DNA from: Verrucomicrobiota bacterium | Lineage (GTDB): Bacteria > Verrucomicrobiota > Verrucomicrobiia > Limisphaerales > UBA1096 | Direction of reading: 5' to 3' | DNA length: 64,000 nt | Assembly: GCA_014382705.1 (NCBI GenBank) | Contig: JACNJE010000080.1 | Location: 4,000 to 67,999 of the forward strand | In this document: one piece after another, positions 9,867 through 64,000 of the stretch | How positions within the stretch are numbered: the first letter of the stretch is position 1 | Layout: each line of letters begins with the position of its first letter | Notes under the pieces: model-generated | The model's input: only the letters and a program-made list of their open reading frames with translations | Told to the model about the DNA's origin: nothing | Databases searched by the model: none | Program-made: the position numbers and the translations under genes

Positions 9867-9968
9867 CGTCGTTTTCTGCTTTGGCGGAAGCTAGACGCAC
9901 CGTGACTCGATTGCAATCGTGCAGTTGCGGCATTGAAAACTGCCCCGATTTGGGTACATTCCCGGGAC

Positions 9969-12900
9969 ATGACCAGTTCGCCCGCATTTCGCCAGCGATG
10001 CACCGCGCGTGTTTTTGTGCGCGCGGGGCTGTTGCTGCTGGCTCTGCTGTTTGCCGCCCCGGCCGGCCAGGCGGTGACGCTGATCGACTACGAATCGGAC
10101 TGGAAACTGTGGCGCGGCCGCAAGACCCCCAGCCGCCCGGACTACTGGGCCTGGACCAAGGCGGCGCATGACGACTCGGACTGGGAGAGCGCCCCGACGC
10201 CGGTGTTCTTCGGCGAGAAGGTCACCGGCGGCACCGAGCTGGAGGACATGAAGAGCCGCTACAATACGTTTTTTCTCCGACACAAGTTCCACGCCCCCGA
10301 CCCCGGCACGGTCACCTCGATGACGCTCCGGGCCAAGGTCGACGACGGGTTCGTGGCCTACATCAACGGCATCGAGGTGGCGCGGCACAACGTCGAGATT
10401 GCAAAGCCCAAGTACAGCTCGGCCGCCTCCAAGGCGGCGTCGGAGCCGCTGCGCTTCCGCAACTACACGCTGAAGAGCCCGGGGGAGTTTCTGGTCGGGG
10501 GCGAAAACACGATCGCGGTGATCGTGCTCAACCAGCGGCGCACCAGCCCGGACGCCTTGTTCGACGCGCGCCTCTCCGTGGTGTCGGTCGAGAGCGTCCC
10601 GCCCAAGGTGGCGTCGGTCGATCCGCCGGCCGGCTTGGCCTCGGACCTGGGCCGCATCCGCGTCACCTTCACGGAGCCGGTGACCGGTGTGGACGCCGCC
10701 GACCTGCTGGCCAACGGCGTGCCGGCGCAGTCGGTCGTGGGCGGCGGCCGGTCGTGGGCGTTTCAACTCGGAAGCCTGCCCCAAGGCAAGGTGCGCCTGC
10801 ACTGGGCTGAGGGGCACGGGATTGTTGACCAGGCGCAGACCCCCAATTCGTTCCAGGAAACCGCCACCGGCAACCGCTGGAGCTATAACCACGCCGACGC
10901 CAACCCGCCGTACGTCAAGCGCACCAACCCGCCGGCCGGGCTGGCGGTGAAGTCGCTCGACACGATCGAGGTCGAGTTCAGCATGAACGTCAGCGGCGTC
11001 GACGCCGGCGACCTGCGGATCAACGGCCAGCCGGCCCAGAGCGTGACGAAGGTCAGCGACAGCCGCTACCTCTTTGCGCTTGGCCAAGCGCCGGGGGCCG
11101 AAGTGAACGTCTCGTGGGACCTGTACCCGGAGATCACCGGCACGAACCCGTTCGAGAAACCGTTCGCGCCGCTTGGCTGGTTTTACCGCGTGGACGCCAA
11201 CGCGCCGCCGCCGCCGCGCATCGTGATCTCCGAGATCATGTACCACCCAATCGAGGAGCCGGAGTTCGACAAAATAGGCAAGCCGACGCTCGACCTTTCG
11301 GAGGACGTGCATGAGTTTATTGAGCTGCACAACTTCAGCCGCGAGACGGTTGCGCTGGACAACTGGCGGATCAGCGGCGGGATCGACTACGCCTTCCCGG
11401 CGGGGACGAAGGTCGAGAGCGGCGATTTCCTGGTCGTGGCGAAAAACCCCGGGCGCCTGGCCGCCGTGAAGGAGTACCGCCTGTCCGGCATCAACGTGCT
11501 GGGGCCGTACGAGGGCGTGCTCAGCAACAACGGCGAGCGCGTGAGTGTGGAAAACGACGGCGGCAACGTCGAGGACACCGTCCGTTACTCGGCCCAGTTC
11601 CCGTGGCCCATCGGCGCGGACTCGATCGGTGCCGGGCCGAAGTGGACCGGGATCGACCCAATGCAGTACCAGTATCGGGGAAGGTCGCTGGAGCGGATCA
11701 ACTTCTCGTTGCCGGGCAGCGATCCGGCCAACTGGGTCGCCTCGCCGCTTGAGAAGAACGCCACGCCGGGCCGGCCGAACCACGTCGCGCGCGTGCGCTC
11801 GATGCCGGCGCCCATCGTCACCTCCGTCCGCGCGGTCGACCGCAACGGCGACACGCTGATCAGCAAGCTGGAAACCGTCACGATCGAGGCGCGGTTCTCC
11901 ACCAACGAGACGCTTGCCGGCGTCACGCTGGAGTACTTTTACGACAACCTCGAGGAGGAGGACGAGACCTTGGCCAAGCGCGGCATGAAACTGAAGGAGG
12001 GCATATGGACGCACACGCTGCCGAAGAAACCGGACCGGACGCTGGTGCGCTACCGAATCCTGGCCGACCTTGGCCAAGGGCTGGAGCAACTCTCGCCGCG
12101 CAAGAGCGACCCGTACCAGTGGCACGCCTACTTCGTGATGCCGAAGTTCAGCGAGACGCGGAAATATTTCGAGCTGCTGGTGTCACGCAACGGCACTAGC
12201 CAACTTTCCAAAAACGCCGCGGCCAACCCCCGCAGCGGCTATCGCCCGGCGAAGGACGTGATCCCGCGCGGCCCGTGGAACGACACCGTGCACGGCATCC
12301 TCGTTTACAACGGCGAGGTGCGCGACGTGTACGCCCGCTGGAACGGCAGCTTCTACCGCCGCAACTCCGGCCGCAACTCGTGGAAGGTGCGTCTGCCGCG
12401 CTACAACCAGTTTGATGGCCAGAGCGACTTGCTGTTTATGGACAAGGACAACGTGACCGTGGCCGGGCACACGCTGTACCGCGAGCTTGGCCTGCCGACC
12501 TCGCACACCGAATGGGTCGATGTCGCCATCAACAAGCGCAAGATGCGGCGCCTGATGGTGGAGGATCACAACGACCGTTTGCTCGAAAGATACCATGAGG
12601 ACCAGGCCCGCCGGAACCCCGGCACCGAGGTCGAGCCGAATGGGCATATCTTCAAGTCGAGTGGTATCCTGCAAAACCTCGGCCCGTACGGCCGGGGCGA
12701 CGGCGGCAAACTGGGAACCAACGACGGCTGGGCGTCGCTGCAGCGGTACGAGTGGATTTACTCCTCCAAAAACCAGGACTGGAAGGGACACACCGAGTTG
12801 AAGGAAATGATCGATGGCCTGGCCAAGAACCGGAGCAACCGCACCCGACTCAAGAAATGGTTCGAGGCGAACTGGGACTTGGAGTCGCTGATGAGCTACA

Positions 12901-15347
12901 TCGCCGTGCGCAACTGGATGGGGACGTGGGACGACACGGTGCACAACTTCTACCTTTGGCGCCGGGCCGACGGACGGTGGGCGCTGTTGCCTTGGGATTT
13001 CGACAACGACATGCGCAACGACTACATCAGCCGGTCCATCTTTATCGGCGAGGCAGGCAACCCCAACACCACCCACGGCACGCACACCATCAAGGATGCG
13101 TTTTTCAAGGCGTTCCGCACCGAGTACAAGGAGCACCTGTACTACCTGAACAACACGCTGCTCACGCCGGAGAGCCTCGGCCGCATGGGCCTGACCGGCT
13201 ACACCGCGTTCGCCCGCGGCCGCCTGTCCAATGTCAACAAGCAGTGCGGCAACGTGAACATCCCCAGCCAACCGTCGGCCCAGCAGTTGACCGGCGGCGG
13301 CTCCGTCTACGCCCCGGCGTCGATGGTGGTGTCGGCCTTCAAGAGCAGCGACGGGGCGGCCACCCACGCCGAGACGATCTGGGAAATCCGCGCCGCCGAC
13401 GGCTCGTTCACCTACCCCGTCTTCAAGGCCAGGACCACGGAGCAACTGACTGAGATGCCGGTGCCGTTCGACCGGCTCGAATTCGGCCGCACCTACTATT
13501 GGCGGGCGACCGTGATCGACTCAAGCGGGCGCAAGTCGCTGCCCAACACGGAGGCTGGCTTCCGCTACGGCGGCCATGCCCGGTCAGAGGATCTCGTCTC
13601 CCTCACGGACACGGAATGGAAATACAACGCAGACGGCACGAACCTCGGCACCACCTGGCGCAAGGCCGAGTACGACGACTCCGCTTGGCCAAGCGGCAAA
13701 TCGTACCTGGGCCGCGCCACCTCCCGGCAAAAACACAAGATGGCCACCACCCTCAAGATGGGGCCAACCACGTTTTATTTCCGCAAAACGTTCAACTTCG
13801 ACCCGCCGGCCGGCGGCGGCGAGCTGCAGATTCGCTACCTCGTCGACGACGGCGCGGTGTTTTATCTCAACGGCAAGCATATCCACCGCGTGAACATGAA
13901 GGAACGCGGCAGCATCCGCCACACCACTCGGGCGCTGGATTCCGTGGCCGACGCCGAGCTGAGCGGCCAGATCACGCTCCCCGGCAAATCGCTGAAGCAG
14001 GGCGAGAATCTCCTCGCGGTCGAGGTGCACCAATACTCGACCAATGACCGGGACCTCGCCTTCGGCATGAGCCTGAGCGCCACCGTCGAAAGCCTGCCGG
14101 ACGGCGTCATTCTCAACGAGTTGATGGCCGCCAATCGCGGCTCGGTGGCAAACGGAGACACCAACCCCGACTGGATCGAGCTGCACAACCCGACCGATCG
14201 CGACATCGACCTCGGCGGTGCCGGTCTCGGCGACGGGGTCGCCCTGGAGCCAACCTTCTTTTTCCCGGCGCAAACCATCCTGCCGGCCAGGGGCCGCCTC
14301 GTCGTCTGGTGCGACAACCAGCAGGAGGCGCCCGGGCTGCACACCGGCTTCGCGCTCGACGCCGACGGCCAAAACATCGCGCTGTGGTGGCCAAGCGATG
14401 CGGGGTTGAAGATTCAGGACGCCATCGGTTTCGGCCCGCAGGCCGGAAATCTCTCCATCGGGCGCGAGCCGGACGGCCTTGGCCCGTGGACGCTCACCAC
14501 CCCCACCCCCGGCTTGGCCAACGCCAAGTCGGACCTGGGCAGCATCCGGTCGCTCTCGATCAACGAATGGATGGCCCGGCCGGAGAACGGCAGCGACTGG
14601 CTCGAGTTGTTCAACAATTCCTCCCTCCCGGTCGCGCTCGCCGGGCTGAAGTTGAGCGACGACCCGGCCCAGCCGGACAAGACCGTGCTGCCGCCGCTCT
14701 CGTTCATCGGCCCCGGCGGGTTTCTCCGCCTGGCCGCCGACAACACCCCCGCCGACGGGCCGACGCACCTCGGCTTCCGTCTCAGCGGCAGCGGCGAAGA
14801 GATCGTCCTGACCGACACGAAGGACAAAAAGATCGACTCGGTGCTGTTCGGCGAGCAGACACGCGGCTCCTCGGAGGGCCGCTACCCCGACGGGGCCAGG
14901 TCGATTGTCTTCTTCCCGAACAGCGCCACGCCGGGCCGGGCAAACCTGATTCTCGGCGATTCCGACGAAGACGGCCTGCCCAACCTTTGGGAAGACCAAT
15001 ACGGGCTCAACCCAAATAGCGCCGCCGATGCCGCGCTCGACCCGGACGACGACGGCCACACCAACCTCGAGGAATATCTCGCCGGTACCCGGCCGGATGA
15101 CCCCGCCAGCGTGCTGGCGCTCGACCTGACGCTGCACGGACGCACTGTGATCGTCTCGTTCGAGGCACAGGCCGGGCGCGCGTATCGGCTGTGGAGCGCC
15201 TCCGACCTCGCCAGCGGCGACTGGATTCAAGTGCAGGCGTTCCCGGCCGCAGACGCCAAACGCACGGTCACCTACGGGATTCCCGCCGTCCATCTGCCGC
15301 TGCCCAACGGCTACTACCGACTTACGATCCCGGCGGCGATCGACTGA
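9969..15347 (+). CDS. Giant secreted CotH-kinase / lamin-tail-domain protein
   Basis: Signal peptide; two DDG-type jelly-roll modules; two Ig-like repeats; LTD starts (IVISEIMYHP, VILNELMAAN, LSINEWMA); CotH motifs (HNFYLW, LLPWDFD); C-terminal DSDEDGLPNLWE...EYLAGT. Confidence 0.88.
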   Translation: MTSSPAFRQRCTARVFVRAGLLLLALLFAAPAGQAVTLIDYESDWKLWRGRKTPSRPDYWAWTKAAHDDSDWESAPTPVFFGEKVTGGTELEDMKSRYNTFFLRHKFHAPDPGTVTSMTLRAKVDDGFVAYINGIEVARHNVEIAKPKYSSAASKAASEPLRFRNYTLKSPGEFLVGGENTIAVIVLNQRRTSPDALFDARLSVVSVESVPPKVASVDPPAGLASDLGRIRVTFTEPVTGVDAADLLANGVPAQSVVGGGRSWAFQLGSLPQGKVRLHWAEGHGIVDQAQTPNSFQETATGNRWSYNHADANPPYVKRTNPPAGLAVKSLDTIEVEFSMNVSGVDAGDLRINGQPAQSVTKVSDSRYLFALGQAPGAEVNVSWDLYPEITGTNPFEKPFAPLGWFYRVDANAPPPPRIVISEIMYHPIEEPEFDKIGKPTLDLSEDVHEFIELHNFSRETVALDNWRISGGIDYAFPAGTKVESGDFLVVAKNPGRLAAVKEYRLSGINVLGPYEGVLSNNGERVSVENDGGNVEDTVRYSAQFPWPIGADSIGAGPKWTGIDPMQYQYRGRSLERINFSLPGSDPANWVASPLEKNATPGRPNHVARVRSMPAPIVTSVRAVDRNGDTLISKLETVTIEARFSTNETLAGVTLEYFYDNLEEEDETLAKRGMKLKEGIWTHTLPKKPDRTLVRYRILADLGQGLEQLSPRKSDPYQWHAYFVMPKFSETRKYFELLVSRNGTSQLSKNAAANPRSGYRPAKDVIPRGPWNDTVHGILVYNGEVRDVYARWNGSFYRRNSGRNSWKVRLPRYNQFDGQSDLLFMDKDNVTVAGHTLYRELGLPTSHTEWVDVAINKRKMRRLMVEDHNDRLLERYHEDQARRNPGTEVEPNGHIFKSSGILQNLGPYGRGDGGKLGTNDGWASLQRYEWIYSSKNQDWKGHTELKEMIDGLAKNRSNRTRLKKWFEANWDLESLMSYIAVRNWMGTWDDTVHNFYLWRRADGRWALLPWDFDNDMRNDYISRSIFIGEAGNPNTTHGTHTIKDAFFKAFRTEYKEHLYYLNNTLLTPESLGRMGLTGYTAFARGRLSNVNKQCGNVNIPSQPSAQQLTGGGSVYAPASMVVSAFKSSDGAATHAETIWEIRAADGSFTYPVFKARTTEQLTEMPVPFDRLEFGRTYYWRATVIDSSGRKSLPNTEAGFRYGGHARSEDLVSLTDTEWKYNADGTNLGTTWRKAEYDDSAWPSGKSYLGRATSRQKHKMATTLKMGPTTFYFRKTFNFDPPAGGGELQIRYLVDDGAVFYLNGKHIHRVNMKERGSIRHTTRALDSVADAELSGQITLPGKSLKQGENLLAVEVHQYSTNDRDLAFGMSLSATVESLPDGVILNELMAANRGSVANGDTNPDWIELHNPTDRDIDLGGAGLGDGVALEPTFFFPAQTILPARGRLVVWCDNQQEAPGLHTGFALDADGQNIALWWPSDAGLKIQDAIGFGPQAGNLSIGREPDGLGPWTLTTPTPGLANAKSDLGSIRSLSINEWMARPENGSDWLELFNNSSLPVALAGLKLSDDPAQPDKTVLPPLSFIGPGGFLRLAADNTPADGPTHLGFRLSGSGEEIVLTDTKDKKIDSVLFGEQTRGSSEGRYPDGARSIVFFPNSATPGRANLILGDSDEDGLPNLWEDQYGLNPNSAADAALDPDDDGHTNLEEYLAGTRPDDPASVLALDLTLHGRTVIVSFEAQAGRAYRLWSASDLASGDWIQVQAFPAADAKRTVTYGIPAVHLPLPNGYYRLTIPAAID

Positions 15348-15353
15348 CCGTCA

Positions 15354-17357
15354 ATGAGCGGCGCGTTGACAACCTTCGACTCGCCCGGGCTGGAACTGAT
15401 CATCCCAGCCGGTTTGCTGCTGGTCGCGATACTGCCATTCCTTGGCCAGACAACCCGCCTACAGGCCGCCGGACTGGTGGCGCTGCCCCTCGCGCTGGCC
15501 GCAGGGCTGGGGATCTTCAAGTACACCGTGGACGCGCACAACGCCGCCTCGCGCGACAGGCTGCTCTCCTCCGCACCGGTGCAGGCCCGGCTCAGCCCGG
15601 TCACCGATCCGGACAACGCCTACGCCTCGTCTAAAACCTGCCGCGCCTGCCACCCGTCCGAGTACCACAGTTGGCACCACAGCTACCACCGCACGATGAC
15701 GCAGTTGGCCAAGCCGGGGGCGGTCTTGGCCAACTGGGACGGCACCCGGCTTCCGCTTGGCCAAGCGGAGCTGCAGCTCGAAAAAAAGGGGGACGAATAC
15801 TGGGTCACCACGGTCGGTGCCGACGGCATCAAGCAGGAGGTCCAGCGCGTGACCCTCACCACCGGCTCGCACCATCTGCAGGTTTATTGGGTCGCCGACG
15901 CCAAGGGCAACCTGCAGCATCCCTTCCCGTACGGCTGGCTGGTTGCCGATCAAAAATGGGCGCCGGTGTCGGACACCTTCCTGCGCGACCCGAACCTCGC
16001 CCCGCCCGACGCCAAGTGGCACAACGTTTGCATCAAGTGCCACGCGGTCGCCGGACGCCCCGGCGCCGATGCCCACACCGGCACCGTCAACACCGAGATC
16101 GCGGAACTGGGCATCGCCTGCGAAGCCTGCCACGGCCCGGCCGGGGCGCACATTGCCCACTACCAAAATCCCGCCAACCGTTACCGGTCGCGCCTCGGCG
16201 GCGGGGCGGCCCACGGCATCCTCAATCCCGGCAGCGAGACACTCGACCACCGCTTATCGACACAAGCCTGCGGCCAGTGCCACTCGTACCAAAGCCAGAG
16301 TCAGGCGCAAAAAATCGACTGGAACAAAAACGGCCCGCGTTTCCTGCCCGGCCAAAATTTGAAACCCCGCGTCGCCGTCGTTCACGCTAGCAACTTCATC
16401 GCCGACAAAAACCCGGGCACGCCTGCGGAACTCAAGGCGTTCGTCGCCACGCACAAACATCTGCCCCTCGGCAGGGGGGATTTGCTCGATCGTTTCTGGC
16501 CGGACGGCATGGTGCGCGTCACCGGCCGCGAATACAACGGCCTGCTCGACACGCCCTGCTTTCAGCGCGGCAAATTGTCCTGCCTCTCCTGCCACTCGAT
16601 GCACGGCTACCACGACCGCAACGACCAACTCGCGCCCCGCATGGCCACCAACGAGGCGTGCCTCCAGTGCCACGACGGTTTCCGCGACAACCCAGCCGCG
16701 CACACCCACCACGCCGCCGGCTCCACCGGCAGCCTTTGTTACAACTGCCACATGCCGCACACCACCTACGGCCTGCTCGGCGCCATCCGCAGCCACCAGG
16801 TCGACTCGCCCAGCGTCGGGGCGCAGTTGAAAACCGGCCGCCCCAACGCCTGCAACCTCTGCCATCTCGACCAAACCCTCGACTGGACCGGCCGGCACCT
16901 GGCTGAGTGGTACGGCCACCGGCGGCCGACGCTCGACGACGACGGTGAGTCGGTCTCGGCGACGCTCACGATGCTGCTCAAGGGCGACGCCGGCCAGCGC
17001 GCCATCGCCGCCTGGCACATGGGCTGGGAACCGGCCCGCAGAGCCTCCGGCGGCGACTGGCAGGCACCATGGCTGATCCGGGCGATGGACGACCCGTACG
17101 CCGCCGTTCGCCAAATTGCCCACAAGGCGCTGACGGCCGATCCCGCCTTTGCCGGCGCGCCGTTCGACTACACCGCCCCCTTGGCCAAGCGCGCCGACCA
17201 AATCGCCGCCATCCGGCGCCGCTTGGCCAACGCCGGCCCGCTTGGCCAAGCGCCGCGGGCCGAACTTCTGCTCGACGGCCGTGGCCGCCCGCTGGAAGAT
17301 GACGCCGCCCGATTGACCGCCCAACGCAACAACCGCCCGATGACCCTACAGGAATGA
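15354..17357 (+). CDS. Membrane-anchored octaheme c-type cytochrome with C-terminal HEAT-like region
   Basis: Eight CxxCH motifs: CRACH, CIKCH, CEACH, CGQCH, CLSCH, CLQCH, CYNCH, CNLCH; two N-terminal TM segments. Confidence 0.88.
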   Translation: MSGALTTFDSPGLELIIPAGLLLVAILPFLGQTTRLQAAGLVALPLALAAGLGIFKYTVDAHNAASRDRLLSSAPVQARLSPVTDPDNAYASSKTCRACHPSEYHSWHHSYHRTMTQLAKPGAVLANWDGTRLPLGQAELQLEKKGDEYWVTTVGADGIKQEVQRVTLTTGSHHLQVYWVADAKGNLQHPFPYGWLVADQKWAPVSDTFLRDPNLAPPDAKWHNVCIKCHAVAGRPGADAHTGTVNTEIAELGIACEACHGPAGAHIAHYQNPANRYRSRLGGGAAHGILNPGSETLDHRLSTQACGQCHSYQSQSQAQKIDWNKNGPRFLPGQNLKPRVAVVHASNFIADKNPGTPAELKAFVATHKHLPLGRGDLLDRFWPDGMVRVTGREYNGLLDTPCFQRGKLSCLSCHSMHGYHDRNDQLAPRMATNEACLQCHDGFRDNPAAHTHHAAGSTGSLCYNCHMPHTTYGLLGAIRSHQVDSPSVGAQLKTGRPNACNLCHLDQTLDWTGRHLAEWYGHRRPTLDDDGESVSATLTMLLKGDAGQRAIAAWHMGWEPARRASGGDWQAPWLIRAMDDPYAAVRQIAHKALTADPAFAGAPFDYTAPLAKRADQIAAIRRRLANAGPLGQAPRAELLLDGRGRPLEDDAARLTAQRNNRPMTLQE

Positions 17358-44275: not shown

Positions 44276-46857
44276 TGCGCCTTGGCCTCCTCGGCGGGGG
44301 GCTTGGGCTTGGCCAAGCGGGTGAGCAGTTTTTGCGCGGCGCGAAATCGTGGCGCGTCCTCGAGCGCCTGCAACACATGGCGCTTGGCCTCGGCCGGCGA
44401 CCGGTCGGCCAGCGCGGTGGCCAGGCGGAAATGCAGATCCACCGGGTCGGCCGGATCGAGCAGCAACAGCCGCTTGAGCGGCCGGAGGGTCGCCTCCGTG
44501 TTGCCGGTTTGCTGCGCGGTCAACGCCATGTAACGGTGGCCGATGGGCGAAAGCGGGTTGGCCGAAAAGAAGCGCTTAGCCAAGCGATCGACCGCCGGCC
44601 AGTTTTCGCGCTCGGCGTGGATTTCCATCAGCCGCCCGTACAGCTTGGTCGCCGCGTCCTCGATGGCGGCCCATTGCTCGAGCACGGCCAGTTCCTCCTC
44701 CGGTTGGCCAAGCTCGCGGTGTGCGCGGGCGAGCATGCCGTACGGCGAGCCGCCGCCGCGCTGCCTCGGGTGCAGCCGGATCGAGCGCTCGAGCAGCGGG
44801 ATCGCCTCGAGGTAGTTCTCCTCCTCGACGAGGTTGGCGCAGGTGGTGTTGAGCGCCCAGATGTTGTCCGGGTTGGCCTCGAGCCAATCGACGATGGCGT
44901 TCTTGTCGAGCGGGTTGACCTCGAGCGGCGTCGGCTTGGCCAAGTCCGCCTCCGGGGCGAACGCCTTGGCCAAGCCGGTGGCAAACGCGGTGAACCCCTC
45001 CTCGAGCTTGGCCAACGGGGCAGCGTGCTGCTCGATGGCGATGTTGATGAACACGCCCTGGCCAAGGTCGTGCAGAATGTTGCTGATGCACGCCTCGCCA
45101 AAATGCTCCACAAGATACTCGACCACGAGCGACGACTGGTAGTAGGCGAACTGCATGTGCTCGGGGCTCTTCGGCACGAGGAACGCCATGCTGAGCCGCT
45201 CGAGCGGGGTCATCTCGCCATTGAGGATGAAATCGCGGTATTCGGGCGTCATTTGCTCGCCCCACGAGCTGTGCCGCAGCCGCTCCTCGTAGACCGAGAT
45301 GCCCTCGCTGAACCAGCGCGGCATCTTGTTGCGCGTCTTTTGCAGCGTGATCACGTGGCAATACTCGTGCCACAGCAGCGACTGCCAGTTTTGCTGGAAG
45401 CCAACGAGCGACTTCGGGCTGTTGGCCGTGATCAGTTTGCCGAAGCAGATGCCCATGTAGCCGTCGCCGCCCGGGATGCCGAACGTCCGCACGGCGAAAT
45501 CTTTTTTCTCCGGGAAAATCTCGACGATCACCGGGCCTTCGATTTGCGTGTCGTATTTTGCCGAGAACAGCTCACGCGCCTCGGTCAGCAGGTCGATCGC
45601 CTCGTCGCCGTACAGCGCGGACTCGTCGCGGGTCATCCGCAGCAGAAAGCCGTTGCGGTCGATGGTCACGTATTTTTTCAGCGAGTCGTGCAGCGTGAGC
45701 AGGTTGAACGTCGTCACGTCGTAGCCGTCGGCCTCGTGCGCCTCCCCGGCCAGCCTCCATCCCTCCTCATCCTCGCCCAGCCGCAGCAGATCCTGCGCGA
45801 GCTGCGTCTTGGCCGGAATGTAATCGTTGCTGAACTTGAGCGCCTGCCGCTGATGCGCCGCGCCCTCGGCGAACAGGTATTTCGACGACAGTTTTTTGCC
45901 GATCTCATGATCGACCAGCGGGTTGGTCTTCCAATATTTCAAGCCGTTGGCCCGCGCCGCCTCGGCCTTGGACGGTTCGTTGCGGACCGTGTGGAGCGCG
46001 GCCTGCAGCGCCCAACTCGCAGCATGGTGCGGGTTGACCTTGAAGATCGCCTTGAGGATGCCGTTGGCTGCGTCGTACTGCTCGGCGTCAGCCTGGTTGT
46101 GCGCCTGCAACAGCAGCGACGGGACGTGATCCGGGTTGGCGAACATCGCCGTGTGCAGCGGTTCCCCCATCTGCGACGGGTCGCTCTCGGCGTACGCCTT
46201 GGCCAGCCCATGCAGCAGGTCGGCGTCCTCGGGGTAATGCCCGATCGCCCGCGTGAACGTCCGCCCGGCCAGCTTGAAGTCGCGCTTGGCCAAGGCCAGT
46301 TCACCCACCGCCAGCAACGCCTCGCGGTTGTCCGGGTCGGACTTGAGCACACGGTCGTACAGGTTTTCCTTCACCTGCTTCGGGTCGTACGCTTTGGTCT
46401 TGAGCGCTGCCCGGCCAAGGAAGACGATCGTGTTCTCGTCACTCAAGGTGCGCCGGCCGTTGATGAACTGCAGGATGACCTGCAGCATCTGGGTGGCCTG
46501 CGCGGCGTCGCCGTTGGCCTCGTAGGCGAGATGAAACAGCCAGAGCGCCTCAGCGTTGTAGCGATACCGGTAATCGTCGAGCAGTTCCGTGGCAAACCGC
46601 GCCGCCTCGGGATATTGCCCGGTGGCCAGCCGCGCCCGAAGCAGCAGCAGCCGCCAGCCGCTGTCATATTCCTTGGCGGCGATGGCCTCCCCGCTGGCCT
46701 TGATCGCCTGGTCGTACTCGCCGATGGCGAAAAACTCGCGCGCCTCCTTGAGCGTCGCCGCCCGTGCTTGGCCAAGCGCCAGGCAGGCCAAGGCCAGCAG
46801 CATGCAATACGGAAAAAAACGAGGCATCAAACCCACCGCCCTCATCATACCGTCCAA
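44272..46857 (-). CDS. TPR-repeat protein with peptidase MA-like (HExxH) domain
   Basis: Signal peptide, TPR helices, LWHEYCHV...PRWFSEG, AYYQS. Exact start uncertain. Confidence 0.85.
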   Translation of the reverse strand: MDGMMRAVGLMPRFFPYCMLLALACLALGQARAATLKEAREFFAIGEYDQAIKASGEAIAAKEYDSGWRLLLLRARLATGQYPEAARFATELLDDYRYRYNAEALWLFHLAYEANGDAAQATQMLQVILQFINGRRTLSDENTIVFLGRAALKTKAYDPKQVKENLYDRVLKSDPDNREALLAVGELALAKRDFKLAGRTFTRAIGHYPEDADLLHGLAKAYAESDPSQMGEPLHTAMFANPDHVPSLLLQAHNQADAEQYDAANGILKAIFKVNPHHAASWALQAALHTVRNEPSKAEAARANGLKYWKTNPLVDHEIGKKLSSKYLFAEGAAHQRQALKFSNDYIPAKTQLAQDLLRLGEDEEGWRLAGEAHEADGYDVTTFNLLTLHDSLKKYVTIDRNGFLLRMTRDESALYGDEAIDLLTEARELFSAKYDTQIEGPVIVEIFPEKKDFAVRTFGIPGGDGYMGICFGKLITANSPKSLVGFQQNWQSLLWHEYCHVITLQKTRNKMPRWFSEGISVYEERLRHSSWGEQMTPEYRDFILNGEMTPLERLSMAFLVPKSPEHMQFAYYQSSLVVEYLVEHFGEACISNILHDLGQGVFINIAIEQHAAPLAKLEEGFTAFATGLAKAFAPEADLAKPTPLEVNPLDKNAIVDWLEANPDNIWALNTTCANLVEEENYLEAIPLLERSIRLHPRQRGGGSPYGMLARAHRELGQPEEELAVLEQWAAIEDAATKLYGRLMEIHAERENWPAVDRLAKRFFSANPLSPIGHRYMALTAQQTGNTEATLRPLKRLLLLDPADPVDLHFRLATALADRSPAEAKRHVLQALEDAPRFRAAQKLLTRLAKPKPPAEEAKAQ

Positions 46858-63566: not shown

Positions 63567-64000
63567 ATGGCTTCACTTGAAAAATTGAACATGGCTTTGC
63601 TTGGCCTTGGACGGGCTGGGAAGTTTCACATCCAGAGCATCCAGTCGATACCGGGGATCAACCTGCGATGTGTTGTGGACGTGGACGAATCCCTGGCCAA
63701 GCGCTTGGCCAAGGATCTGGAGTGCGACTACTCGACCTCTGCCGAAGGGCCGCTTGGCCAAGCGGACGTTGATGCGGTGATTGTTGCGTCACCGACGCAT
63801 GCGCATTATGGGCAAATCCAAGCCGCGCTCGAGGCCGGCAAGCCGGTCTTCACCGAGAAACCGCTTGGCAGCAGCCTCAAGGAAATCGATACCTGCTTCG
63901 GCTTGGCCAAGCGCAGCGGGTTGCCGCTGTTCGTCGGCTTCAACCGCCGGTTCGACCCGTCCTTCTCCAGCCTCGCCCGAGGCGTGAAGGAGGGACAGGT
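63567..64000 (+). CDS. Gfo/Idh/MocA oxidoreductase (myo-inositol 2-dehydrogenase-like), 3'-partial
   Basis: Not in the ORF track; my translation: MASLEKLNMALLGLGRAG...DAVIVASPTHAH...GKPVFTEKP...LFVGFNRRFDP. Confidence 0.9.
   Translation, partial: MASLEKLNMALLGLGRAGKFHIQSIQSIPGINLRCVVDVDESLAKRLAKDLECDYSTSAEGPLGQADVDAVIVASPTHAHYGQIQAALEAGKPVFTEKPLGSSLKEIDTCFGLAKRSGLPLFVGFNRRFDPSFSSLARGVKEGQ

Follow-up and report, generated by a model that had tools for sequence, protein, structure and literature searches.

A phased palindrome that rewrites codons in a marine verrucomicrobial genus is a likely self-DNA signal for natural transformation

A CotH/lamin-tail gene in the window (the whole 64-kb stretch of DNA that was analysed) repeats one short palindrome in different reading frames (Table 1), which raises the question of what imposes a single DNA word on unrelated stretches of protein. 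The initial annotation had read the palindrome there as ALGQA, TLAKR, DLGQG and SAWPSG, and in an iolG-like gene as LAKRLAK, PLGQA and GLAKR. The four readings recur in the open reading frame 9933–15347 of the forward strand (cores 11080, 11970, 12070 and 13685, respectively), so that the use of three frames inside the CotH gene is borne out, and the iolG-like triplet was also recovered (at 63693, 63750 and 63900). The first LAK of LAKRLAK is coded CTG GCC AAG, with one mismatch to the motif, and the gene itself matches NCBIfam TIGR04380 with E 9e-28, under the cut-off on a truncated piece. The 14- and 16-mers are free of stops in every frame, as had been claimed; across the genome all three frames are indeed used, but very unequally, the 10-mer being read 1424 times as LAK, 874 times as LGQ and 96 times as WP. 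The CotH/lamin-tail gene is a bystander and no functional part of the motif system.

Table 1. Coordinates of the motif-bearing features in the window.
Feature	Position	Strand	Remarks
CotH/lamin-tail-domain (LTD) protein gene, 1804 codons	9933..15347	+	Pfam CotH and LTD; five motif cores
16-bp perfect palindrome GCGCTTGGCCAAGCGC, read as ALGQA	11076..11091		core 11080
10-mer read as LAK	11969..11978		core 11970
10-mer read as LGQ	12069..12078		core 12070
16-bp palindrome CCGCTTGGCCAAGCGG, read as AWPS	13681..13696		core 13685
TTGGCCAA core read as LAN	14514..14521		fifth in the CotH gene
Phased cluster, cores 15705, 15726, 15757	15705..15764		2.0, 3.0, 5.0 turns of 10.43 bp
Phased cluster, cores 17181, 17223, 17242	17181..17249		4.0, 1.8, 5.8 turns
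Phased cluster, cores 44936, 44966, 45008	44936..45015		2.9, 4.0, 6.9 turns
iolG-like gene segment, cores 63705, 63754, 63903	63693..63914	+	LAKRLAK, PLGQA, GLAKR

The palindrome, (CG)CTTGGCCAAG(CG), spans 10–14 bases and is spread in thousands of copies over the whole source genome (G000, a draft of 181 contigs and 4.02 Mb). Against an order-2 Markov expectation of 12.7, the 10-mer CTTGGCCAAG occurs 3286 times, 60 of them in the window, and the 14-mer CGCTTGGCCAAGCG occurs 1172 times versus 0.2 expected; the core TTGGCCAA has 4335 copies, with a consensus graded outward. Gene calling with a custom hexamer model gave 2873 genes (85% coding), of which 1321 contain at least one 10-mer; 73% of the 10-mers fall inside coding DNA and the longest stretches without the motif are low-GC regions. 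Contigs from three additional marine runs (two studies) span the sites, with zero differing letters at them. We found no report of this palindrome in the open literature searched.

Among the genomes searched, the motif is confined to one marine verrucomicrobial genus. Twenty of its 26 genomes contain 0.29–0.92 10-mers per kb, while G440 has 0.13 and five low-GC genomes have 0.012–0.023, so that the motif is scarcer 6-fold in the G440 lineage and 40-fold in the low-GC lineage. Those five motif-poor genomes still retain 41–65 10-mers, versus 1–4 for the reversed word, and no substitute motif appeared within 385 kb of motif-poor DNA. Genomes from sixteen other families of the order hold 0–2 14-mers, and none of 400 other genomes of the phylum exceeds 77 10-mers; in a GTDB-wide scan, 68 of 80 among the matches listed were titled Verrucomicrobia, pointing to marine Verrucomicrobiota. 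No RNA carrier of the motif was among the matches listed. The strict pattern retrieved no phage and a looser one retrieved 75 matches, of which the densest phages have most of their copies in a single gene and do not resemble the G000 proteome. Within this single GTDB genus GC ranges from about 41% to 64%, both lineages that lost comEC (see below) being lower.

Where the palindrome falls in a gene, it dictates the codons. For Leu-Ala-Lys, the comparison proposed in the initial annotation, 1684 of 2340 tripeptides (72%) are coded by TTGGCCAAG versus 6% expected; likewise, CTTGGCCAA codes 1018 of 1429 LGQ (71% versus 2%) and TGGCCAAGC codes 121 of 160 WPS (76% versus 2.7%). Away from the motif, Leu is coded by CTG (0.43), CTC (0.32), TTG (0.15) and CTT (0.07), and Gln by CAG (0.71); both sets of counts agree with the claim that TTG, CTT and CAA are forced against the genome's preference. 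The four most enriched tripeptides are LAK, GQA, LGQ and AKR. Pilin-like paralogues with LPALAKAK were considered as a source of LAK and account for just 35 of the 2340.

The residues themselves mostly differ where the motif is missing. In motif-poor congeners the tripeptide is wholly kept at 31 of 157 sites (154 genes), when 35–54% would be expected from residue types, and in two other families at seven of 75 (116 genes). Over the same aligned regions, G000 and these two families have, respectively, 83 versus 27 LAK, 39 versus 5 LGQ and 6 versus 0 WPS, and 29 versus 27 of the reversed control KAL. Conservation was below that of permuted tripeptides for LAK (p 0.03), with no significant drop for LGQ in the two other families (p 0.53). 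Only two of the 157 sites and two of the 75 are aligned with gaps, and thus the motif was gained by substitution, not insertion. Among motif-rich congeners the sites lie in variable regions (flanks 0.68–0.78) and are themselves kept (0.84–0.90), and synonymous codons are retained better inside the motif than outside (CTT 0.89 versus 0.42, AAG 0.97 versus 0.78, GCC 0.89 versus 0.72, TTG 0.68 versus 0.49), AAC being retained equally. Since 137 of 255 sites are not common to motif-rich congeners, turnover is ongoing. The codon bias in three frames and the reversed-tripeptide controls rule out selection on the peptide and uphold the earlier view of a pressure on DNA.

The alignment of 19 CotH orthologues illustrates both the rule and its exceptions. 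At cores 11080 and 11970 the residues are missing from motif-poor relatives: the Gly of ALGQA is derived (LNQ in three of four motif-poor orthologues, FNK in the other), and LAK is replaced by VVK, LVK, WTK or LVR there and by KVQ in three motif-rich orthologues. The site at 12070 is a recent gain, with LGQ only in G000, G021 and G022 and LGM, LGK, LGN, FGK, FGN or FKK in the remaining orthologues. The annotation's inference that the residues are derived therefore holds for most sites but not for all: WPS at 13685 is present in two of four motif-poor orthologues, the peptide there being largely older than the motif and its codons forced. One N-terminal LGQ of the protein is also retained without the motif in three of four motif-poor genomes.

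Single mismatches to the motif seldom fall within the inner six bases and are more frequent outside, so the inner TGGCCA is strict and the flanks looser. The same concentration of mismatches at outer positions is seen for HIP1 of cyanobacteria, for which Elhai's methyl-directed model attributes the word to a modification or repair enzyme that forms and re-forms it around a marked core, the sites being of no benefit; a density near one per kb would also fit (PMC4390886, in its available part). We consider such an origin improbable here, because no shared methyltransferase was found in the three families searched: the C5 family PF00145 is in none of 19 motif-rich congeners and has a single member in G000, on a motif-free stretch of 51% GC, and PF01555 and PF02086 are in none of six and none of five motif-rich genomes, respectively. 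It would also leave unexplained the arrangement of the copies along the helix.

Distances between pairs of cores oscillate with a period of 10.43 bp (bootstrap 10.39–10.48; permutation p 0.005). This helical phasing, which the initial annotation missed although its DNA-level pressure and footprint hold, has an amplitude of 0.71 at 16–100 bp, 0.41 at 100–200 bp and 0.23 at 200–300 bp, with none beyond; the window's own 28 pairs reach 0.99, and in the iolG-like segment the outer cores are 19.0 turns apart and the middle one is out of phase. Pairs 39–43 bp apart outnumber pairs 45–49 bp apart in all 19 motif-rich relatives (656 versus 196, in whole-genome counts), although these are non-independent replicates since kin share sites. 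Half-sites are also in phase, at 0.29–0.53 for the closest variants. An origin in protein alpha-helices is rejected because, with seven duplicate pairs removed, control tripeptides gave −0.34 to 0.29 without a steady in-phase signal, and because spacer-to-gene pairs are phased (0.71, 0.56 and 0.51; z 4–5). Pairs within spacers are phased under 100 bp (0.62), the signal being absent further out (70 pairs), and same-gene pairs at 200–300 bp only weakly (0.12). A general periodicity of the genome is likewise rejected: of 16 control words, those with more than 250 pairs gave 0.03–0.14 at 10.5 bp, sparse ones being noisy (ACCGGT 0.40, noise 0.19), and the genome's own AA/TT period away from the sites is weak, about 11.15, and differs from that of the motif. 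Periods of about 11 bp in mesophilic bacteria and of 10.5 bp in relaxed B-DNA are given in the available part of PMC7537859, which doubts a simple link of sequence period to supercoiling. The motif has the period of relaxed DNA. The agent behind its maintenance recognises duplex DNA, has two-fold symmetry and favours several copies on the same side of the helix.

The copies are also clustered. Pairs are in excess below 270 bp (1.6–1.8 times below 170 bp) and short at 500–1000 bp, also inside long genes, and it is only the clusters that are slightly more even than random (CV 0.69 versus 0.73). Spacers are richer than genes, with 3–5 copies per kb and a top of 5.1 in convergent spacers; the first 20 nt after stop codons have 7–11 cores per kb, versus 2–3 further on in long spacers, and no set distance to −35/−10 boxes was seen. 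The peak after stop codons could come from a small RNA hairpin for 3′-end protection or pausing, the 16-mer folding at −6.8 kcal/mol, or from a REP-like mobile repeat, G000 having two Y1 transposases. Both are very unlikely, given that most copies are in coding DNA and were gained by substitution, the 10-mer alone does not fold, a T-rich tail follows just 23 of 311 post-stop sites, Rfam has zero matches within the window, a Y1 transposase is in neither of two other motif-rich genomes, and an RNA would not produce double-helix phasing.

Gyrase cleaves at T^GGCC, and the sites might be its preferred places of binding and cleavage, under selection close to the ends of genes because supercoils accumulate there. 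The richness of convergent spacers would suit this, as would the single GyrA-family gene, without topo IV, in five of five genomes, and the preference of the gyrase arms for phased AT/GC (PMC6379681, available part). We nonetheless give it very little credence: flanking GC modulation is below 1% here, the motif of the E. coli enzyme is long and degenerate, with a strong consensus making it slower (PMC6379681), and GyrB is 88–90% identical in motif-poor genomes. The gyrase and hairpin readings explain only parts of the pattern. The lone GyrA-family gene lies at C18:28931–33039 in G000 and was seen in four relatives.

A separate line of evidence comes from competence genes. ComEC is present in G000, in 13 of the 19 motif-rich congeners (completeness would predict 14.6) and in 16 of 16 other families, and in none of five motif-poor genomes. 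In motif-rich genomes comEC sits between ffh and a vanZ-like gene, and it is missing from this place, on unbroken contigs, in the four motif-poor genomes examined (G001, G004, G008 and G024, with G006 left out) and in G440. Six motif-rich drafts had no ComEC match (G005, G007, G010, G011, G014 and G017). DprA and ComM (YifB) were in two of two motif-rich and none of three motif-poor genomes. In G440, comF is replaced by a gene-length stretch of 750 bp in which similarity is gone and no frame exceeds 92 aa; about 640 kb of the 3.2 Mb of this genome (about a fifth) was covered. A synteny screen for co-lost genes, which took in 637 kb from G440 plus 476 kb from motif-poor genomes, recovered comEC and comF and no receptor. 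Pilus and secretion ATPases are retained in motif-poor genomes, and no strong ComEA-like match was found in the genus (best E 3e-10, in motif-poor genomes too). Genomes that keep comEC, comF, dprA and comM without such a match may have a periplasmic DNA receptor of a different kind.

G440 is placed among genomes with 0.49–0.82 copies per kb, away from the low-GC clade, and a 12-genome AlaS tree requires two separate losses (AU p 6e-6 for the alternative of a single clade). A GyrB tree is compatible both with loss of the motif by the low-GC clade and with earlier branching of that clade (82/99, AU p 0.35). Both lineages also lost GC (41% in the low-GC lineage and 51% in G440, versus about 57–64% in motif-rich genomes), and base composition by itself accounts for about a twofold drop of the motif.

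Together, the protein change, the same-face phasing and the scarcity in two lineages that lost uptake genes indicate that the palindrome probably serves natural transformation as a new signal of self DNA. DNA with the motif would enter the cell, or be processed, at a higher rate, and copies would accumulate wherever proteins tolerate them and decay once competence is lost. The palindrome, with its strict centre and looser flanks, suggests a dimeric reader. This reader may belong to a rigid assembly with many sites, for instance a pilus filament or some other oligomer, that favours relaxed linear DNA with several copies on the same face; a fragment of roughly 1–1.5 kb might need no more than one phased patch, which would give the deficit of pairs at 500–1000 bp. 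We favour a transformation-linked signal because biased uptake gives genome-wide gain by substitution, foreign DNA poor in the motif and erosion of the copies once competence is gone (PMC2817400 and PMC7811141, as far as their available parts go), because HIP1 also tracks competence genes and because the period is that of relaxed DNA. Stated in full, that the signal accumulated by biased uptake or processing and is read by a multi-site receptor, the proposal has in our judgement an even chance. We lean slightly against, while regarding as possible, the boldest form, an independently evolved, methylation-free palindromic uptake signature, the first in Verrucomicrobiota, whose polymeric receptor would grip same-face copies over about 100 nm, with this geometry written into chromosome and proteome.

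Several observations weigh against uptake. There are just two independent contrasts, both with GC loss, and relaxed selection could therefore have removed competence genes and motif together; the 16 other families with ComEC lack the motif; copies cluster below 270 bp, unlike known uptake sequences; and uptake alone would not lead one to expect the peak directly after stop codons. The targeted candidates (Phd/YefM, HU, H1-like, histone fold and ComEA-like proteins, and the synteny screen) yielded no reader protein, and the Phd/YefM antitoxin was rejected as such, being in just 8 of 24 congeners.

The phasing would be as natural if the motif were the binding code of a nucleoid protein with sequence specificity, one that occupies a single helix face cooperatively and bends or wraps DNA in patches of about 300 bp, 1–1.5 kb apart. 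Such a protein would account for the clustering and the deficit at 500–1000 bp, inside long genes too, for the enrichment in spacers and beside gene ends and, as a dimer, for the palindrome; once motif-like words are masked, AA/TT lies half a turn off the dyad (4%), which resembles DNA lying on a protein, and a chromosomal role has been proposed for HIP1 (PMC5861425, available part). The loss would reflect weak selection on thousands of sites, failing in streamlined lineages also without recombination. This main rival is rather unlikely, in our view, as it does not itself predict the double loss with comEC and comF, the motif period is unlike the chromosome's own 11-bp signal, and the targeted search gave no clade-specific candidate: HU is in motif-rich and motif-poor genomes alike, a coiled-coil/winged-helix protein resembling H1 occurs across the order, with an almost identical copy in motif-poor G008 and divergent ones in three motif-keeping genomes, G000 has no histone fold, and, as for Phd/YefM, the presence of these candidates does not follow the motif.

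To our knowledge, no more than two families have been shown to take up DNA in a sequence-specific way. The transformation-linked reading shares with their signals, the DUS of Neisseriaceae and the USS of Pasteurellaceae, thousands of genome-wide copies arising from mutation and recombination and scarce in foreign DNA, placement at variable residues, enrichment of the signal's own tripeptides, a critical inner core and a tie to competence. The hyper-abundance, the substitution at variable codons and the scarcity where competence genes were lost are those of an uptake sequence; the palindromic form and the clustering are not, uptake sequences being non-palindromic and more even than random. The motif differs further in sequence and phylum, does not form terminator dyads, lies in helical phase where DUS and USS copies are even, and enriches its tripeptides 4.1–4.4-fold versus about 2-fold. 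Uptake sequences double their own tripeptides and are non-palindromic and evenly spaced according to the available text of PMC2817400, and two USS within 100 bp did not raise uptake according to that of PMC7811141. The proteome-wide footprint resembling uptake sequences that the initial annotation had proposed is thus supported at the level of sequence by the roughly fourfold enrichment, and the likeness appears to gain from the competence-gene pattern.

HIP1 (GCGATCGC) and the alternate HIPs of cyanobacteria are likewise hyper-abundant palindromes near one per kb, read in all frames, conserved beyond codon effects and tied phylogenetically to competence genes. HIP1 tracks these genes (PMC13756078) and aids transformation (PMC13756078; bioRxiv 10.1101/2024.09.10.611283), going by the available parts of both sources. 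Yet the motif is unrelated in sequence, GCGATCGC being under-represented in G000 (226 versus 388 expected), has a longer, graded consensus, belongs to one genus and not to a phylum, in a host that is not a cyanobacterium, and has no cognate methyltransferase in the three families searched; its periodicity is 10.43 bp, whereas periods of 18–94 kb are reported for HIP1 in the available part of PMC5861425. In its proteome footprint the motif works like DUS/USS and HIP1 and is a member of neither.

Two further kinds of palindrome differ more plainly. The sites of matS, parS and SlmA/Noc are palindromes of 12–16 bp, bound by dimeric proteins able to oligomerise on DNA, and number tens in defined regions, whereas the motif has thousands everywhere and a cognate protein was not found in the targeted search. 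REP/BIME repeats, with their RAYT transposase, are short palindromes frequent just after stop codons; the motif is mostly intragenic, shorter, no extragenic insert, and has no shared or linked Y1 transposase. A link of BIME to gyrase is described in the available part of PMC6379681.

New here are the helical phasing and the competence-gene link of the motif. The genus adds another, independent case, complete with a natural experiment in which density runs from 0.01 to 0.9 per kb over 26 genomes with two competence-gene losses; the role of HIP1 has been open for three decades. The phasing yields a physical prediction, that in-phase pairs outperform out-of-phase pairs, which separates mechanisms and is applicable to HIP1, DUS and USS. 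Were a nucleoid protein responsible, the motif would amount to a positioning code, akin to chromatin, with enough force to change about 0.9% of residues. Under either reading, the motif biases work on the codons, tripeptides and phylogeny of these marine genomes and is a strong binning signature.

Several minor observations were made along the way. The coiled-coil/winged-helix protein considered above (L227:2347–2904; G000 C167:14846–15403) has 185 aa, with a coiled coil, a long Lys/Ala-rich linker and a winged-helix-like end; it is in 8 of 16 other families, with the linker longer in this genus, matched only unnamed clusters above 0.9 in an Atlas search (HARE-HTH at 0.82), and is likely an undescribed verrucomicrobial nucleoid protein. 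A second DprA-like gene follows, by eye, a RecQ-like helicase gene in G000 (C11:9790–12860), possibly in a mobile or defence module. The motif-poor draft G008 (C206; L294:1393–2756) contains a histone H4-like gene and a DnaJ-ended gene of giant-virus-like look, probably from binning contamination. Outside the genus, the top count is in G330 (77 10-mers versus 2 of the reversed word), a few other genomes having 20–49, and a 2600-bp record titled Proteobacteria bacterium (L054), with four 10-mers and six cores, is either a mislabelled genus member or a second carrier. Three near-identical phage contigs (L328, L368 and L371; 9307–12156) have 11 TTGGCCAA cores in one long gene. In two Sphingomonadaceae records (L059:1501–1829 and L082:1501–1829), two TTGGCCAA copies 14 bp apart lie just before the start of a Phd/YefM-like antitoxin gene, followed by eye by a PIN-like gene; from this position, the core elsewhere is probably a toxin-antitoxin operator.
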